Origin: a phage | Sequence record: PZ154896.1 | Length of the DNA stretch: 64,000 nt | Strand: one strand, 5' to 3' | In this document: positions 5,090 through 64,000 of the stretch, piece after piece | How the letters are laid out: each line of letters opens with the position of its first letter | Position numbering within the stretch: position 1 is the first letter of the stretch | Notes under the pieces: generated by a model | The model's input: only the letters and a program-made list of their open reading frames with translations | Database searches by the model: none | Told to the model about the DNA's origin: nothing | Made by a program: the position numbers and the translations under genes

Positions 5090-6175
<1,086 letters not shown>

Positions 6176-52541: not shown

Positions 52542-52739
52542 ATGTTTAAACTTCCATCGTTAATCAACGCTATTAAAGGCAATAAAAAGAAAACTGCTAT
52601 CGCTGCAATAGTTGTGGGTGGCATTATTTCATGGAACTTCGGGATTGCGCCATTGTTAGTTGCCCATGGTGTTATGGTTCCTTCTGTTCCATTGGATACT
52701 GTAGTTGATTTGGCCTTTGCTATTATAGGGCTTGTTTAA
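52542..52739 (+). CDS. small hydrophobic membrane protein (65 aa) on the opposite strand
   Basis: Strong RBS AAGGAGATATT-ATG; fills the gap between gene 61 stop and gene 56 start; two predicted TM segments. Confidence 0.5.
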   Translation: MFKLPSLINAIKGNKKKTAIAAIVVGGIISWNFGIAPLLVAHGVMVPSVPLDTVVDLAFAIIGLV

Positions 52740-53758
52740 ATCTTCGAATAACGAGATAACCTCATTTTAGCATGCAACCCACTTGAAATATTCTGTTTCA
52801 TATATTCTAAAATTTCTTGTGGTGTTGCATTTTCTTTCATTACCATATCATTCACATCCTTTGATCTCCACGGAGCTCGGTCCCAGAACATGACACGTTC
52901 GCCTGCATCAACTAATCGCTTCATGCGAGCTATAGTATCCGGATGCCTAGGTTCATTATCCATTACCCATACCCGACGTTCTTTAAATGGTACCACATCT
53001 AAATCTATTGAGCCGCCTGTAATAGCGATTGCATTGGGTATGAATAAACTATCAATAGGGCCTTCCATTACCCAGACGTCTCCTTCCTTAACACGTTCAA
53101 CACCATAAATTTTTGTTGCAGACTCAAATGCTTTAATAGTGATATATTTCTGAGGAGCATCTTTACGAAGTGCACGTCCTTGGAATGACTCGGCCTTCCC
53201 ATCTTTATTAAAAATAGGAATCACTAAACGTGGTTCTGGAATCTCTTTCTTATACGTACCAGGTTGAATCTTGTTGACCAATTTGGGCCATTCTAATGTG
53301 AACCATAATCTGTTCCATGATTCTTTAGGAATGCATCGAGACTTAACATATTTCACAATAGGATGCTCTTCAGGCAGCTTGTCCAGACGAGAACAAGACG
53401 GCAAAGAATTTATAGTCTTTTTCTCTGGCTCCGGCTTAGCTTCAGGAACCTTTTCAATCTTTGGTTCCATTCTAGCTTTTTCTTTACGAACTTCCATTAG
53501 ATATTCGCGGTAAAGCTCTTCATCATACTCTTTTAAGTATCCGGAAATTGTATTGTGGTATTGACAATTATAGCAATGTACATTACCAGGAGTACCGCCA
53601 TAATACCATCCACGAGCTTTCATTGCATCTGTCTGGGAGTCGCCACAAACTGGACATCGAAATGTTAATTTAAATGTACTTGAATTATTGATTTGTCTAA
53701 AACGAGGTAGGTGAGAAAACGCACGATAAGCAAATTCATTATCTATCCATTCAGCCAT
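52736..53758 (-). CDS. 61: DNA primase gp61
   Basis: 340 aa; N-terminal zinc ribbon CPVCG...CYNC and TOPRIM-like core; T4 gp61 length. Confidence 0.88.
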   Translation of the reverse strand: MAEWIDNEFAYRAFSHLPRFRQINNSSTFKLTFRCPVCGDSQTDAMKARGWYYGGTPGNVHCYNCQYHNTISGYLKEYDEELYREYLMEVRKEKARMEPKIEKVPEAKPEPEKKTINSLPSCSRLDKLPEEHPIVKYVKSRCIPKESWNRLWFTLEWPKLVNKIQPGTYKKEIPEPRLVIPIFNKDGKAESFQGRALRKDAPQKYITIKAFESATKIYGVERVKEGDVWVMEGPIDSLFIPNAIAITGGSIDLDVVPFKERRVWVMDNEPRHPDTIARMKRLVDAGERVMFWDRAPWRSKDVNDMVMKENATPQEILEYMKQNISSGLHAKMRLSRYSKI

Positions 53759-53797
53759 AGTATTCTCCAGAGGCCTTAAATTAATAAGGCCATCATA

Positions 53798-54292
53798 TCA
53801 CAACTTATTAATATTTACTTTAATTCGCTTTCTTTTCTTGGAAGGAATTTGTTCTGGACCTTTATTTACGACTGCACCTGTAGTTGTTCCTGATGCAATA
53901 GCTTGAGGACTACCGCCTGAATCACCAGCAACCATATCCTCAAATAAAGGGAGTTCTTTAAATATTTCTTTCTGTTGTTCTTCCGTAATGTTATAGCGTG
54001 AAGCTACAGCACTCCAGGCAGACATCATTGAGGCCATTCCATTAAGACCTGGAACAGTGCTCATCATTCGCTTCATTGAACGAACTGAAGCATGAAAAGG
54101 TGTATACGCAGCTTTCTCTTCGGGAGTAGAAGGACGTTTAAGAACACTTCCACGTTCATCGATGATTTTGGCTTCGTATGCTTTCCATTCGGTAAAAGGT
54201 TTTTGCATTAGTCGAATAAACTTATATGCATAAACAGAATCTATTGCAGTGTTAATAATACCCATAGGTACCTCCTGAGTATATTTAATCAA
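53798..54292 (-). CDS. hypothetical protein (164 aa or shorter)
   Basis: ORF track; Lys/Arg-rich C-terminus. Confidence 0.4.
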   Translation of the reverse strand: MIKYTQEVPMGIINTAIDSVYAYKFIRLMQKPFTEWKAYEAKIIDERGSVLKRPSTPEEKAAYTPFHASVRSMKRMMSTVPGLNGMASMMSAWSAVASRYNITEEQQKEIFKELPLFEDMVAGDSGGSPQAIASGTTTGAVVNKGPEQIPSKKRKRIKVNINKL

Positions 54293-54482
54293 TTACAAAG
54301 ATTGCTTTGTCACCATTTACATCTGTGACTTCATATGTAGTGCCTTCATACTGTGGAATATTCCAAATTACACCATCATTAGCTTTTACGCTAATATGAC
54401 ATTGGTGTTTTGAAACAACTTCATAATCTTCAAAACTTGTAAAAACACTAATTTTAGAACCAGTGCAAATTGCAGTAGTCAT
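54285..54482 (-). CDS. hypothetical protein (65 aa)
   Basis: ORF track. Confidence 0.4.
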   Translation of the reverse strand: MTTAICTGSKISVFTSFEDYEVVSKHQCHISVKANDGVIWNIPQYEGTTYEVTDVNGDKAIFVID

Positions 54483-54483
54483 T

Positions 54484-55143
54484 TTAACCTCGATTCATAA
54501 ATGCATTAAATATTTGGTCATCAACAGAAATTTCTAATTCGACTTCAATTGCTTCAGCCTTTTCTTCAGGTGGTAATTCGTATCCACACACTACAATTTT
54601 TTCATCGATATCAAAATACACAGAAGCAATATGATTAATGTTATTTTCGGTTAAGTCTAAATCAACATCAACATCTTTTTGACCTACACTTAAAGGATAA
54701 CTAATACGGGTTATTTTATTATCTTTAACAAAGAGACCACCGACATACTCTGTACTACGTTTGAAGTCTACACGTTTCCGAAATGAAAGATATGATGCAT
54801 CTTTACCGTGAGCTCGGCTCATAGGGCATAATGAATAGCTAGAATATGAGATGTCAAATCCTACACCTTCAATATGAGCCAACGCGTCATGATTAAACCA
54901 ATTATAATCATATGCCAAATCCATTATATTGTAATATGTGAAAGGCACCGGATTAACATCATACGTTGTACCTTTAAAATCTGCCCAGGCAACGATTTCG
55001 TTATCTTTAACAATTACAAAAATTACACCAATATGGTATCCGTTATTATTTTCATTCGGCGTTATATTATAACATTGTGCATTAGGAAATTTACCATATT
55101 TAAATGGCGCATTTTTGTGCATATAATAAATCATATTATTCAC
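54484..55143 (-). CDS. hypothetical protein (219 aa)
   Basis: ORF track. Confidence 0.45.
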   Translation of the reverse strand: MNNMIYYMHKNAPFKYGKFPNAQCYNITPNENNNGYHIGVIFVIVKDNEIVAWADFKGTTYDVNPVPFTYYNIMDLAYDYNWFNHDALAHIEGVGFDISYSSYSLCPMSRAHGKDASYLSFRKRVDFKRSTEYVGGLFVKDNKITRISYPLSVGQKDVDVDLDLTENNINHIASVYFDIDEKIVVCGYELPPEEKAEAIEVELEISVDDQIFNAFMNRG

Positions 55144-55429
55144 CTGTGATTTCGGTTACGATATCTTTGTTATCGAAATTAGGGTCACAATACAAAACAT
55201 AATTGTACTGCATGATACCACCAGATTTAAGTTGTTCAACAACTTTATTAACCATATTAGGACGGTCTCGTTTAGTGATGTTCATGATATCAGAGAAGAT
55301 TTGTTGTTCAACATCTTCTTGATTTGCAGTCATTGACCACTCACAGAGGTCTTTATCATAACCTGCCGTAACTGGAGCTGGTGCACATGATACTGCGAGT
55401 AAGATTGCTGCCAATGATAACTTTTTCAT
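55136..55429 (-). CDS. sp: Spackle periplasmic superinfection-exclusion protein
   Basis: 97 aa with signal peptide; GYDKDLCEWSMTA...KSGGIMQYNYVLYCD matches T4 Sp. Confidence 0.85.
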   Translation of the reverse strand: MKKLSLAAILLAVSCAPAPVTAGYDKDLCEWSMTANQEDVEQQIFSDIMNITKRDRPNMVNKVVEQLKSGGIMQYNYVLYCDPNFDNKDIVTEITGE

Positions 55430-55492
55430 TTTAACTCCTTAGTTGATTTGATAGGACTACTATACTATAGTCCATCTATAATGTAAACAAGT

Positions 55493-55741
55493 TTATTCTT
55501 TTTCGCGAATAATAATTACTTGTTGAGGCTGCTGAGCAGATTTCTTTTCGGCAACGATAGACCAAATTAAAGTTCCAATCCAACCAATCATCGTCCAGTT
55601 AAAGAGTAAAGATACAAAGAAGATTGCTGTTGTGCTTTTTGTGCCACGAATAAGTGCGATTACCCAAGGCAACATGTAAATGACGATTGAACCAATACCT
55701 GCGATTAAAACCGCTACTGAACTAGCTACGAATAATTCCAT
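55493..55741 (-). CDS. small two-TM membrane protein (82 aa; Imm-like size/topology)
   Basis: Two hydrophobic helices; T4 Imm is 83 aa two-TM, but identity cannot be verified. Confidence 0.4.
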   Translation of the reverse strand: MELFVASSVAVLIAGIGSIVIYMLPWVIALIRGTKSTTAIFFVSLLFNWTMIGWIGTLIWSIVAEKKSAQQPQQVIIIREKE

Positions 55742-55802
55742 GTTAATTTCCTCTTGATTTGTTATGTTTATAATATCTTGTTTTAACTTTGGCGTAAACC
55801 AA

Positions 55803-56171
55803 TTAATTAAATTTGTTTAAACGTTCAATACACTGGACGTAGTTATTTGCGATTTGTTTCTGTGTAGGCTCTTTACCGGTTGTTTCAACATAGCGAATGA
55901 ATGCGATTTCAGTAGCCTGTAGACAATGTTCTTTAACGCGCTGTTCTTTTGACATAGCTACGGTATCAGAATCACGATAACGTTGAGCATGGGCATCAGC
56001 TTGAATCATTCGATTACCTACAGTAACCGGGTCTTCCACTTCAACTTTAGGTTGGTCATACTGTTTAACATTCGGATTGTAAATCAGTTGGCCAACGTTA
56101 TTAGGGATAAAGCCGTGGGCACCACATCCGGTTAATCCAAATACCATTGCTAAAGCGATTAATTTTTTCAT
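55803..56171 (-). CDS. predicted lipoprotein (122 aa)
   Basis: Signal peptide with lipobox LTGC. Confidence 0.5.
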   Translation of the reverse strand: MKKLIALAMVFGLTGCGAHGFIPNNVGQLIYNPNVKQYDQPKVEVEDPVTVGNRMIQADAHAQRYRDSDTVAMSKEQRVKEHCLQATEIAFIRYVETTGKEPTQKQIANNYVQCIERLNKFN

Positions 56172-56242
56172 TTCAATTTCCTCTGTAGTTGATAAAAAGA
56201 TAGTAACACAGTATGTGGTGCTTGTAAACAGTTATTTTAAAA

Positions 56243-56431
56243 TTATCGAAAATCTGCTTCGAAAACTTTCTCGTCATTAACAAACGCTTTAACTAATGCG
56301 TTGTTCACTTCAGCAAGTTGTATCGCAACCCACTCGATTTCTTCACGGTCACCTGATAACATGATATCTTTAGTGAACATCTCGCCGCTTTTAAACCAGC
56401 CAATAAAAGTAACTTTAGTTAATTTGCTCAT
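56243..56431 (-). CDS. dmd: Dmd antitoxin (inhibitor of host RnlA/LsoA toxins)
   Basis: Internal ATG with GAGGA RBS gives 62 aa; VTFIGWFKSGEMFTKDIML...AEVNNALVKAFVNDEKV matches T4 Dmd. Confidence 0.8.
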   Translation of the reverse strand: MSKLTKVTFIGWFKSGEMFTKDIMLSGDREEIEWVAIQLAEVNNALVKAFVNDEKVFEADFR

Positions 56432-56745
56432 ATTTCCTCGCAAAATGCCCATTCAGCGTGATAAACTGTAGCACCTTTAGTATTATTCATTTGAACTACG
56501 TCTACCGGAGAAATTACTCGATAGAGACGTGGTTCACCTCCATAAGAGCGTGCTGCTCGTCCTGCATAAATCTTTGCTAAACCGATATCTTCAGTAAAGA
56601 ATACACGATCCAAGTTTTTCTTACGCCCAGTTTCAGACAGAACTCCTGTTTCTTCAGGAGGACAAAGCATGTTTTCGATGTTAGCTGAACTACTTGAACC
56701 GTGATAAAAAATCTTAAATTCTGCTTTACAATCAATGGTTTTCAT
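56428..56745 (-). CDS. small protein with Arr/Tpt1-like ADP-ribosyltransferase signature (105 aa)
   Basis: FYHGSSS...RVFFTED...LYRVISP blocks resemble the rifampin-ADP-ribosyltransferase fold as recalled from memory; stop overlaps dmd start (ATGA). Confidence 0.35.
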   Translation of the reverse strand: MKTIDCKAEFKIFYHGSSSSANIENMLCPPEETGVLSETGRKKNLDRVFFTEDIGLAKIYAGRAARSYGGEPRLYRVISPVDVVQMNNTKGATVYHAEWAFCEEI

Positions 56746-56804
56746 TTTGTTCTCCTCTTGGTTGGTGTAAGTACATCATATCATGCCTAGAGGAAGATGT
56801 AAAC

Positions 56805-56828
56805 CCCGAAAGGAGACCGAAGTCTCCT
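56805..56828 (-). terminator. terminator hairpin after gene 41 (AGGAGAC-ttcg-GTCTCCT)
   Basis: Near-copy of the 790-807/15874-15891 hairpin; T-tract is better on plus strand so may act bidirectionally. Confidence 0.55.
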
Positions 56829-56833
56829 TTTTA

Positions 56834-58276
56834 TTAAAATTTTAACTCATTGGCTAAGCTATCTAGGTCAGCACGTGTTGTTTTGGCTTTACCTACGCGT
56901 TCCGTACGATTCACCTCTGCCTGACGCATCTGAGCACCTGCGTTTTCATTTACTGTGTTAGGTGTGTTCATGCCTTCTTGCTCAATCTCAACCCATTTCT
57001 GGTTGCCTTTACGTACACCCATCAGGAATTTATTCCACTTATTCTTATCACCGTATCGTGATTTGATTTGTTTGATAAGTTGTTGTTCAGCTTGTGCAAG
57101 TTCTTCGGTTTCAATTACGGCCAACATGAAATCTGCCGTTGCTGGTAAACCTGCTGATTCTGCAATATCGCTCATGTTCATATCCGAAGCATCCCATGCT
57201 GCACGTCCTACTTGAGCGGCAGTCCATAGAACTGTTTCAGATTCTACTGCTAATGCACGAAGTTCTTCTGCGATAGCTTTAACTAATGTGTAGCTATTTT
57301 CAGTGTAAACTCTGATACGGCAAGACCCACAAATACCTAAGTAATCAACCATGATTACAGATGGCACAAAGTTCTTCTTGAGTTTCAATTCATTAAGCAA
57401 TGCACGGAATGTATTAGCATTAGCTCCGCCAGTAGGATACTGTTTAACTACTAAACGTCCTAATGTGGATTTTGAACGCCATTTTTCCATCTTGGCTTTA
57501 TATTCAGCATAAGATACGTTACCATCATCAATATCATCGAGCGATACGTCAAGCATGTTTGCATCTATACGCTTAGCACAAACTTCTTCAGCCATTTCCA
57601 TAGAAATATAAAGAACATTATGACCTGTTTGAAGATAATCTGCAGCAAGTGAACAAAGGCCTAAAGATTTACCGACGTTAACACCGGCCATTAAAACGTT
57701 CAGTGTACCAGTTTCAGCACCACCTTTAGTGATTTTATTCAGAATGTTTAATTTGAACGGGACCTTACGTGCTTTGTTCAGATAAGAAAGCCAGCGGGCT
57801 TCATAGTCTTCCATCCAGTCATGTCCAACATAACTATCAAACGAAATTGAAAGTGCTTGACGCATAATATCAGGAATAGCTCCTACATCAGGCATTTTCT
57901 TGTTACGTTGTTCTGGAGGTAGTTCAGCATTAGACTGAATCTCAATGATTTTGGATGTAGCATTATACATCGCTTTTTGCTGGACATATTTCTCAGTTTC
58001 TTTAACCAACCATTCGTGGTCTTCAGGAGTATCAGCCAATTTTTCAATTAGGTCTGAAGTTCCTTTATATTCGGCTTCAGTTAAAGAACTGTTATCTAAA
58101 GCCACCTTTAACGCATTGATAGATGGCATTGCATTATATTCGTTAACGTGGCTCTTTATAATTTTAAAGACATTTTTTGCCGGTCCACGCTCAAAATACT
58201 CAGAATCCATATAAGGCCAGACCTTAGAAAAATAAGCCTGGTCATATACTAGATGAGACAAAATAATTTCTACCAC
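56834..58276 (-). CDS. 41: replicative DNA helicase gp41 (DnaB-like)
   Basis: 480 aa; Walker A GVNVGKS; T4 gp41 length. Confidence 0.9.
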   Translation of the reverse strand: MVEIILSHLVYDQAYFSKVWPYMDSEYFERGPAKNVFKIIKSHVNEYNAMPSINALKVALDNSSLTEAEYKGTSDLIEKLADTPEDHEWLVKETEKYVQQKAMYNATSKIIEIQSNAELPPEQRNKKMPDVGAIPDIMRQALSISFDSYVGHDWMEDYEARWLSYLNKARKVPFKLNILNKITKGGAETGTLNVLMAGVNVGKSLGLCSLAADYLQTGHNVLYISMEMAEEVCAKRIDANMLDVSLDDIDDGNVSYAEYKAKMEKWRSKSTLGRLVVKQYPTGGANANTFRALLNELKLKKNFVPSVIMVDYLGICGSCRIRVYTENSYTLVKAIAEELRALAVESETVLWTAAQVGRAAWDASDMNMSDIAESAGLPATADFMLAVIETEELAQAEQQLIKQIKSRYGDKNKWNKFLMGVRKGNQKWVEIEQEGMNTPNTVNENAGAQMRQAEVNRTERVGKAKTTRADLDSLANELKF

Positions 58277-58285
58277 GATAACTCC

Positions 58286-58627
58286 TTAAAAGAATTTAAA
58301 TTTTTTCTTGGTCCGTTCATTAAAAGCTTGTTGTACTTGCATTGTAACACATTTTTCAACATGTGGTGCAAGTTCTGCTTTTCTGTCCTGGTCAAGAACT
58401 GCAAAGTCCATTACGATTTTACCATCAACCCAGTCTAGTTTTGTAATATAGACTATATGATGAGAACCATCTTCAAGCGTAATCAGAATCTCTTGAATGA
58501 CATTTTCCATTGCTGAACGGATAATTTTAAGAGATTCATTAAACACTCGTTCTTTGCGAATGTCTTCCCCTTCCGAAGAAGGGGATTCATCAACGATTTC
58601 TAGATTTAAATCATCGAGATTATTCAT
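58286..58627 (-). CDS. 40: gp40 head vertex assembly chaperone (tentative)
   Basis: Internal ATG overlapping uvsX 3' end; 113 aa; T4 position between uvsX and 41. Confidence 0.5.
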   Translation of the reverse strand: MNNLDDLNLEIVDESPSSEGEDIRKERVFNESLKIIRSAMENVIQEILITLEDGSHHIVYITKLDWVDGKIVMDFAVLDQDRKAELAPHVEKCVTMQVQQAFNERTKKKFKFF

Positions 58628-59792
58628 CGAAATCTTCCATTTCGTCAAGGTCGTTTTCTATATCTGCTGCAGACGGAGCATCAGAAGTTTTAACCGGAAC
58701 TTTAGTTGTTGCTTTGCAATTAATAAGGTCGTTAACAGCATCATCAACTTCTTTAATAGAAGAGATAGCACCTAGTTTATATTTAGTTTCAATTGCATCT
58801 CGGAAAGGTTTGTGTTTAAACAACGGTCCCCAGAATTCTACACAATCAGTAGCTTTAGCACGCCATGATTTTTCTTCACGAATCATTTCGCCTGTTTCTT
58901 CGTCAAGGAATTCGCGAGCATACCACCCGGCTTTAGGCTTAACTACAAAACCAATTTCAGTTGCCATTTCTAACAAGCCACTGAATGGGTCAATACCACC
59001 ATCGAAATTAACCGTGATTGGGAAAGTAGATTTTTCTTTAACGGTGCGAGATTTTTCCGCTTTCAACGTGAAGTCATAACCGGTCAATTCTGTACCTTCT
59101 TTAACCTGACGTTTAGAGATAAAAAATACCGTGTTGGCAGAATAAAGAATACCTGTACCACCACCCATAATCTCTTTAGGATACAATCCGCCGATTTCCA
59201 TTGCTGTATGGTTGATTGCAACACATGGAATATCTTTAATAGTCAGATACGGGGTCACAATGCGGAACAGAGATTTAAGTGCCTTAGCACGAGACATATC
59301 ACCTACAACTTTCTCGTTCAATGCATCTTCGGTTTCTTTCTTAGACGCAGTATTACCGATTGAATCGATAAAGATAATAACTTTATCACCGCGTTCAATC
59401 GCGTCAAGCTGATTAGTCATATCAACTTTAAGTTGTTCGACAGATTGAATCGGAGTATGAACTACACGGTCTAAATCAACACCCATTGAACGAAAATAAG
59501 ATTCTGAAGCACCAAATTCCGAATCATAGAACAAACAAATTGCATCTTTATATTTCTTCATATATGCTGCAACCATGGTCAGTCCAAACAACGTTTTAAA
59601 GTGTTTAGAAGGAGCAGCAAAAATAGTTAAGCCTGATTGCAACCCAGCATTCAGTGCACCACCTAATGCAATATTCAACATCGGAATACGAGTAGGGACT
59701 TCATCACGATTATTAAACAGCTTAGACTTGGTCAAGTCTGCAGTCATTTTAGAAGTAGAAGCTTTAATCAGACGAGATTTTAAATCAGACAT
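58620..59792 (-). CDS. uvsX: UvsX recombinase (RecA-like)
   Basis: 390 aa; RecA-like ATPase core; T4 UvsX length and position. Confidence 0.9.
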   Translation of the reverse strand: MSDLKSRLIKASTSKMTADLTKSKLFNNRDEVPTRIPMLNIALGGALNAGLQSGLTIFAAPSKHFKTLFGLTMVAAYMKKYKDAICLFYDSEFGASESYFRSMGVDLDRVVHTPIQSVEQLKVDMTNQLDAIERGDKVIIFIDSIGNTASKKETEDALNEKVVGDMSRAKALKSLFRIVTPYLTIKDIPCVAINHTAMEIGGLYPKEIMGGGTGILYSANTVFFISKRQVKEGTELTGYDFTLKAEKSRTVKEKSTFPITVNFDGGIDPFSGLLEMATEIGFVVKPKAGWYAREFLDEETGEMIREEKSWRAKATDCVEFWGPLFKHKPFRDAIETKYKLGAISSIKEVDDAVNDLINCKATTKVPVKTSDAPSAADIENDLDEMEDFDE

Positions 59793-63954: not shown

Positions 63955-64000
63955 TGATGAGTGATATCGCCACCGATTGGACGATAGGAAACACCAGTTT
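63955..64000 (-). CDS. 3' end of an upstream gene (partial, function unknown)
   Basis: Open reading frame continues on minus strand to window end. Confidence 0.3.

Follow-up and report, generated by a model that had tools for sequence, protein, structure and literature searches.

Gene content of the interval between genes 41 and 61

A stretch of 64,000 nucleotides from a phage (sequence record PZ154896.1), referred to below as the window, carries a 3-kb row of small genes (positions 53798-56745) between gene 41, encoding the replicative helicase, and gene 61, encoding the primase. An earlier note on this DNA had described the row as an accessory island and had taken it as a sign of a rearranged or hyperplastic region. 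Our comparison identifies it with high probability (about 0.9) as the normal early-gene cluster that Tevenvirinae carry between genes 41 and 61 (61.1 to 61.5 of T4), in the form present in Mosigvirus, the RB69-type phages.

Every gene in the 50-60 kb part of the window lies on the minus strand. Gene 41 (56834-58276; DnaB_C, E-value 1.1e-17) forms the upstream flank of the island; its product shares 85.6% amino acid identity with gp41 of T4 and 99% with that of RB69. The downstream flank, gene 61 (52736-53758), gave a weak match to DNAG_N and encodes a protein with 99.7% identity to gp61 of RB69 and 74% to gp61 of T4. From the stop codon of gene 41 to the start codon of gene 61, eight open reading frames (ORFs) on the minus strand cover 2,720 of 3,075 bp (88%). 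The small genes reported earlier are real, and their number is eight instead of about nine.

In the direction of transcription, the first gene (56428-56745) encodes a 105-aa protein of predicted ADP-ribosyltransferase (ART) fold, which corresponds to ORF040c of RB69 (phrog_2110) and had been labelled an Arr-like ORF. It is followed by dmd (56243-56431; 62 aa from MSKLTKV; PF17587), by imm.1 (55803-56171; 122 aa, a predicted lipoprotein; DUF5481, PF17578) and by the superinfection immunity gene imm (55493-55741; 82 aa; PF14373). The second half of the island comprises sp, encoding Spackle (55136-55429; 97 aa; T4_Spackle, PF25676), adfA, the 61.2 gene of T4 encoding anti-DarT factor A (54484-55134; 216 aa from MIYY; PF23813), an ORF of 65 aa equivalent to RB69 ORF033c (54285-54482; phrog_3249) and a full-length 61.1 (53798-54265; 155 aa from MGIIN; phrog_2086, 1.2e-73). 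These gene identities are direct observations. Pfam gave no match for the 105-aa, 65-aa and 155-aa proteins, while PHROGs placed all eight in phage families; scans with NCBIfam and PADLOC returned no match among the eight proteins, and an Rfam search of the 50-60 kb region likewise found none. A reading of the small ORFs as spurious was rejected because each of the eight has a conserved, annotated counterpart in relatives.

The same cluster in Mosigvirus relatives

The window belongs to Mosigvirus: across the island it is 98% identical to phages HX01 and SQ17 and about 97% to RB69. A 5.6-kb query spanning genes 41 to 61 retrieved 151 records with at least 80% coverage at 95-99% identity, and a query with the island only retrieved 155 with at least 80% coverage. 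The closest layout was found in Escherichia phage vB_EcoM_SQ17 (MW882907), which has the identical eight genes at 100% coverage and 98.3% identity and differs by point differences only. In RB69 (NC_004928) the order is 41, ORF041c, ORF040c, dmd, 61.4, imm.1, imm, sp, 61.2, ORF033c, ORF032c, 61.1, 61, which has stood in the record since deposition, and HX01 has the layout of RB69, that is, the genes of the window plus ORF041c and 61.4. The genes shared with RB69 follow one order, and the island proteins of the two phages are 96-100% identical. The island is already known, being annotated in RB69 and in about 155 related records, and the synteny comparison does not bear out the suggestion that the arrangement is a non-standard one.

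The two genes that RB69 has in addition were lost from the window by cassette-sized deletions with junctions at ribosome-binding site (RBS)/ATG regions and gene ends, as read directly from the aligned sequences. The indel that contains 61.4 (positions 5772-5974 of the RB69 locus, L003) extends from the ATG of 61.4 to near its stop codon and includes the last codon of dmd, so that the C-terminal glycine of Dmd is lost at the deletion junction in the window. The second indel, of about 414 bp, removes ORF041c together with the ORF040c promoter and has its junction in a 15-bp RBS/ATG repeat; ORF040c would therefore be served in the window by the promoter that precedes ORF041c in RB69. Of the approximately 155 Mosigvirus records, 133 contain ORF041c and 69 contain 61.4. 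The best 40 hits comprise 6 with the short form of the window, 16 with ORF041c alone and 18 with ORF041c and 61.4. As judged from these alignments, the indels between genes 41 and 61 are cassette-sized and vary within the genus.

Other genera fill the interval differently. Six small genes are present in Kanagawavirus (Klebsiella phages), with the ART-like gene first, and fourteen, including an ART-like gene, in Lazarusvirus (Acinetobacter phages); Dhakavirus has the ART gene, dmd, two small ORFs, sp, three small ORFs and 61.1, and in Tulanevirus (Aeromonas phages) the ART-like gene is found at another place in the genome. With 6 to 14 different small genes at this position in other genera, a well-filled gap is normal for the family.

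This distribution bears on the possibility that the island was recently acquired by horizontal transfer from a source other than T4-type phages and would be a foreign mobile block or moron. The G+C content of the island is slightly lower (0.358) than that of the window (0.378) and of genes 41 and 61 (0.39), and domains similar to ORF040c also occur in unrelated giant polyvalent proteins, as described below. The difference in G+C content, however, is within local fluctuation, and the local profile shows no discontinuity across the island. Furthermore, every gene has homologues at the same position in other Straboviridae, the identity to RB69 stays at about 97% along the whole island, all four promoter-like sequences are of the T4 early type, and an integrase, a transposase, a homing endonuclease or long flanking repeats were not found at the island. 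We consider a foreign origin very improbable.

Comparison of the cluster with T4

The earlier note had assumed that in T4 gene 61 closely follows gene 41 and that sp and dmd lie beyond gene 61. This does not agree with the T4 record (NC_000866), in which the order in the direction of transcription is 41-dmd-61.4-sp-61.2-61.1-61, with five small genes in the gap; the T4 names 61.1 to 61.5 number from gene 61 towards gene 41. Position, strand and the order dmd ... sp-61.2 ... 61.1 are the same in both phages, as are the early promoter sequences upstream of dmd and sp, and Dmd, Sp and AdfA share 54-67% amino acid identity with their T4 counterparts. The window differs from T4 by the presence of ORF040c, imm.1-imm and the 65-aa ORF, by a 61.1 of 155 instead of 54 aa and by the absence of 61.4. 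For ORF040c, ORF033c and the N-terminal 100 residues of 61.1 there was no match in the 15.5-30 kb locus of T4. In RB69, number-named ORFs are those without a T4 orthologue (PMC1524935).

A truly novel, phage-specific island would have required that sp and dmd moved in from beyond gene 61 and that about nine genes were added. The gap is indeed longer than that of T4 (3,075 bp compared with about 1.65 kb), it contains imm.1 and imm, which T4 keeps between genes 42 and 43, and three of its genes are unmatched in the T4 locus. Nevertheless, dmd and sp already lie between 41 and 61 in T4, and an identical or nearly identical layout recurs in about 155 public records and has long been annotated in that of RB69; the T4 and Mosigvirus annotations already refute this explanation, which we consider extremely improbable.

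One genuine rearrangement relative to T4 was identified. The pair imm.1-imm, which has the same internal order in both phages, is located inside the island in the window, behind its own predicted early promoter, and between genes 42 and 43 in T4. In phage MX01, related to Dhakavirus IME281, imm is, as in T4, remote from the island (about 10 kb). RB69 has a small ORF (L003 15824-15934) annotated as 'similar to T4 42-imm intercistronic region', which may be a remnant of an imm relocation. Because of the position in MX01 and this annotation, we infer that the location in Mosigvirus is derived. In RB69 the small ORF lies in the 42-43 interval (L003 10048-16599), next to the sugar-metabolism genes that occupy it; in the window this interval is incomplete, as the sequence stops at 64000.

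Genes with characterised homologues

Experimentally characterised homologues exist for four of the eight genes, namely sp, imm, dmd and adfA, and the functions given here for their products are those suggested by homology. The Sp protein matched the Pfam family T4_Spackle (1.1e-42) over profile positions 1-96 of 96 and the structure of T4 Spackle (PDB 6x6o; 1.4e-39) over its full length; its hydrophobic N-terminus corresponds to a signal sequence. Imm matched Imm_superinfect (1.5e-15), is 64% identical to Imm of T4 and has two hydrophobic segments (residues 3-21 and 40-58). Imm.1, with a match to DUF5481 (3.6e-09), shows 32% identity to the T4 and 98% to the RB69 protein and carries a signal sequence with the lipobox L-T-G-C. 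Dmd matched PF17587 (2.8e-19) as well as the structures of the RB69 (PDB 5i8j; 1.7e-36) and T4 (PDB 5hy3; 3.2e-16) proteins and presumably neutralises the RNases RnlA and LsoA. These Pfam and PDB matches, the lipobox and the hydrophobic segments agree with the assignments that had been made earlier for sp, dmd, a lipoprotein and a two-transmembrane protein of the size of Imm.

AdfA matched PF23813 (4.3e-121) over profile positions 1-211 of 211 and is 67% identical to gp61.2 of T4; the RB69 annotation starts the protein at MHKN (212 aa), compared with 216 aa from MIYY in the window. Residue 164 (RB69 numbering) is histidine in the window, T4 and HX01 and arginine in RB69. RB69 was reported to escape the DarTG1 defence by the AdfA substitution R164H, and His164 to be the naturally DarT1-neutralising allele of related phages, whose product binds DarT1 (PMC11257639). 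The phage analysed here thus carries, unlike RB69, the DarT1-neutralising H164 allele, which is a useful by-product of the analysis.

In agreement with the earlier note, the island is enriched in envelope (Imm.1, Imm, Sp) and anti-toxin (Dmd, AdfA) functions. The note had also considered that the small ORFs might already be characterised, which holds for sp, imm, dmd and adfA through their homologues but not for the other four.

Regulatory sequences

Against 5.2 expected occurrences, the window contains 24 copies of the early promoter-like motif GTTTAC-N15-19-TAnnnT, 22 of them on the minus strand, an enrichment that was observed directly. Four distinct sites occupy the four intergenic gaps of the island, all on the minus strand: P1 (56775-56804; GTTTACA-17-TATGAT) upstream of ORF040c-dmd, P2 (56200-56229) upstream of imm.1, P3 (55770-55799) upstream of imm and P4 (55459-55488) upstream of sp. 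P2 resembles the promoter of T4 imm.1, with which it has the string CTGTTTACAAG...TACTAT...ATCAACTAC in common.

RNA folding predicted a stem-loop with a 9-bp stem and a UUCG loop just past the stop codon of gene 41 (56809-56830, minus strand), followed by the early promoter in the manner of the early promoter/stem-loop (PeSL) elements; the same sequence is found upstream of ORF041c in RB69. A stem-loop also spans the -10 box of P4. Between 61.1 and gene 61, within the 39-nt gap that precedes the start codon of gene 61, lies a stem-loop with the sequence GGCCUUA-N6-UAAGGCC (53770-53794, minus strand; -12 kcal/mol, z = -2.85), which may serve as a terminator, an attenuator or a translational control element for the primase. 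A generic terminator scan found two weak sites only, none in an intergenic gap.

Repeats similar to the RBS/ATG repeat at the ORF041c junction recur inside the island (families D1 and D2). In family D2, the RBS and ATG regions of ORF040c (56739-56758), imm.1 (56165-56184) and imm (55735-55754) are 20-mers with 80% identity.

The ART-fold protein ORF040c

The 105-aa protein is 100% identical to ORF040c of RB69. Homologues, mostly with 60-100% identity, were found in 610 phage records, among them phages of Escherichia, Klebsiella, Acinetobacter, Aeromonas and Vibrio. In an alignment of 24 sequences (59-88% identity to the query) the invariant residues include Y14, H15, G16, F49, T51, D53, Y60, R63, G69, G70 and E103. 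Sequence searches of the PDB, both with the single sequence and with a profile, gave no match, and in the literature we found no described function for the ORF040c family or for an Arr-like ART in T4-like phages.

An AlphaFold2 (AF2) model of ORF040c (predicted local distance difference test score, pLDDT, 85) had as its best PDB match in Foldseek the Arr structure 9iaf (E-value 0.019, probability 1.0, template modelling (TM) score 0.61); lower-ranking matches were KptA/Tpt1, pertussis-like toxins, ParT and RES toxins, and KptA and Arr are the closest folds. The hhalign comparison with ARR-2, whose sequence was checked against PDB 9iba, was weak (E-value 4.9e-4, probability 32%); it aligned FYHGS with FYHGT and RVFFT with HIYFS and placed the catalytic tyrosine of Arr opposite F49. 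Of the His, Tyr and Asp residues of the Arr active site, the histidine position is H15, which is invariant. Position D82, presumed to correspond to the aspartate of Arr by motif comparison and not by structural alignment, is D or N in 23 of the 24 sequences and G in the remaining one. No Pfam family was matched directly at E≤0.1, and the gathering score of the Arr-ms profile (PF12120) was not reached, while the relatives P0265, P0242, P0239 and P0247 pass it (26.9-29.7 bits; cutoff 25), although over profile positions 1-67 of 99 only. The designation 'Arr-like' is thus fair for the predicted fold, which brings the genes correctly named in the earlier note to five.

Compared with Arr (PF12120; PDB 2hw2, 9iaf, 9iba), the motifs FYHG[ST] and [VI][YF]F[ST] align, whereas ORF040c is shorter (105 aa compared with about 143-150 aa), has a phenylalanine in place of the tyrosine and ends at residue 105, without the C-terminal third of Arr. 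The last approximately 40 residues of the Arr domain help to form the rifamycin-binding site. A rifamycin substrate is not implied by any of the similarities found. In contrast to the RNA 2'-phosphotransferase KptA/Tpt1, a two-domain enzyme in which an RNA-binding domain precedes a NAD+-binding ART domain, ORF040c has no N-terminal RNA-binding domain.

A profile search of 1.8 billion representative sequences yielded 222 relatives at E ≤ 0.001. Many of these are domains of large proteins (maximum 3,924 aa); Pfam assigns several of the domains to Arr-ms above threshold, and the neighbouring domains comprise ART-PolyVal, NUDIX, ddrB-ParB, CHAP, GNAT, Toprim, lambda-type portal and 2H/Acb1-like phosphoesterase. 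Polyvalent and portal-fusion relatives include P0265, P0242, P0283, P0273 and P0251. Such large proteins have been described as polyvalent phage effectors that are probably injected (Iyer et al., PMC5512222; discussed in PMC9503650).

A tentative interpretation of these data is that ORF040c is an active, minimal single-lobe ADP-ribosyltransferase, produced early together with Dmd, which would act in counter-defence or host takeover on a host protein, a nucleic-acid end or a small molecule. It would then represent the free-standing form of the Arr/KptA-like domain of injected polyvalent proteins. ModA and ModB were reported to be absent from the RB69 group (PMC5885020), and an active ORF040c may fill part of the early-ART niche that these enzymes occupy in T4. 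Any enzymatic activity is at present a prediction from the modelled fold.

One could go further and regard ORF040c and dmd as the functional core of the island, with an active NAD+-dependent mini-ART whose target would be RNA ends or a host defence protein, and with the other genes being incidental. In favour of such a module, the stop codon of ORF040c and the start codon of dmd overlap by 4 bp (ATGA) in the window, RB69, HX01 and SQ17, and no other gene separates them in IME281; H15, F49 and E103 are among the invariant residues, a homologous domain forms part of a fusion with a portal protein and a 2H/Acb1-like phosphoesterase, and others stand beside NUDIX domains. However, the activity is a prediction, the RNA-binding domain of KptA is absent, and a phenylalanine faces the catalytic tyrosine of Arr. 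In addition, T4 manages with dmd alone, and the ART gene is not beside dmd in Kanagawavirus, Lazarusvirus and Tulanevirus. We regard such a core as unlikely. ORF040c is nevertheless a reasonable candidate for a new NAD+-dependent phage effector and the only element of the island with some discovery potential.

61.1, the 65-aa protein and flanking genes

In most Straboviridae the 61.1 protein has 155 aa, and T4 retains the C-terminal 54 aa only. Its C-terminus matches phrog_1823 (T4 61.1), and residues 111-150 of the 164-aa ORF form are 75% identical to gp61.1 of T4. The gene is an intact single ORF in the window and is split over two frames (ORF032c and 61.1) in the RB69 reference. A helical N-terminal half is followed by a conserved tail predicted to be disordered; in the AF2 model of the 155-aa protein (pLDDT 64) the C-terminal half is disordered. 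The tail reads E-x-MVAGDSGG...IASGTTTGAVVNKGP...KKRKR, also given as MVAGDSGG..IASGTTTG..KKRKR. A GDSGG serine protease was considered and rejected because the serine is not conserved in the alignment, and a PDB sequence search gave no match. 61.1 is always found directly upstream of the primase gene 61.

The 65-aa ORF occurs in 263 phage records, mainly of Mosigvirus, and also in IME281 (Dhakavirus) and several Escherichia, Salmonella, Yersinia and Shigella phages; it had no match within the 15.5-30 kb locus of T4.

Upstream of gene 41 lie gene 40 (58286-58648) and uvsX (58620-59792). On the other side, a hydrophobic ORF of 65 aa on the plus strand (52542-52739) converges on gene 61 and overlaps its 3' end by 4 bp. 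It corresponds to RB69ORF029w, and similar ORFs occupy the same place in HX01, SQ17, Dhakavirus IME281 and Kanagawavirus, where the counterpart is annotated 'contains transmembrane domain'.

Function and evolution of the cluster

The island is best understood as the ordinary 41-61 cluster of Tevenvirinae. It would form a row of small non-essential early genes, most of them behind their own T4-type early promoter, and these genes would therefore be expressed in the first minutes of infection. Three of the products may constitute a superinfection-exclusion module at the envelope, consisting of the lipoprotein Imm.1, Imm in the inner membrane, where it would block DNA entry, and periplasmic Spackle, which would inhibit the tail lysozyme gp5 of incoming phages. 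Two further proteins would counteract toxins, namely Dmd the RNases RnlA and LsoA, and AdfA the DNA ADP-ribosyltransferase DarT. Single-gene cassettes are probably gained and lost at promoter and RBS sequences that recur in the cluster, and the Mosigvirus lineage keeps imm.1-imm in the 41-61 gap instead of between genes 42 and 43.

Several points weigh against this interpretation. The four promoters are matches to the consensus, from which activity is predicted, and stable stem-loops occur in two of the four intergenic gaps only; the other two are unstructured, so that not all are canonical PeSLs. The anti-DarT role of H164 in this phage is an extrapolation from R164H of RB69, and deletion of adfA in T4 had no phenotype on DarTG1 (PMC11257639). 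Imm.1, the 65-aa ORF, 61.1 and ORF040c are the uncharacterised genes of the island, and the proposed direction of the imm.1-imm move derives from MX01 and an RB69 annotation.

What the earlier note had observed is real but ordinary. Its interpretation was right about gene content and plasticity, since the region is variable and includes the imm.1-imm rearrangement relative to T4, and wrong about the T4 reference, on which the supposed unusualness depended, and about novelty. The island in itself, a textbook variable early-gene region of T4-type phages, means very little. The comparison, on the other hand, points to the mode in which such clusters change, by exchange of single-gene cassettes at early-promoter and RBS repeats.

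Comparison with hyperplastic regions of T4-type phages

For the hyperplastic regions of T4-type phages, a published mechanism has modules shuffled by recombination between cassettes that consist of an early promoter and a stem-loop (Arbiol et al. 2010, PMC2839356). The layout of the window resembles these cassettes without matching them perfectly, as it combines predicted promoters with a stable stem-loop in just two of the four gaps. Like the published regions, the window would have small non-essential genes separated by strong early promoters, and its two indels relative to RB69 have their junctions in regulatory sequences or at gene ends, comparable to the indels between close relatives in those regions. 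We infer that the single-gene cassettes of the 41-61 cluster are likewise exchanged by recombination.

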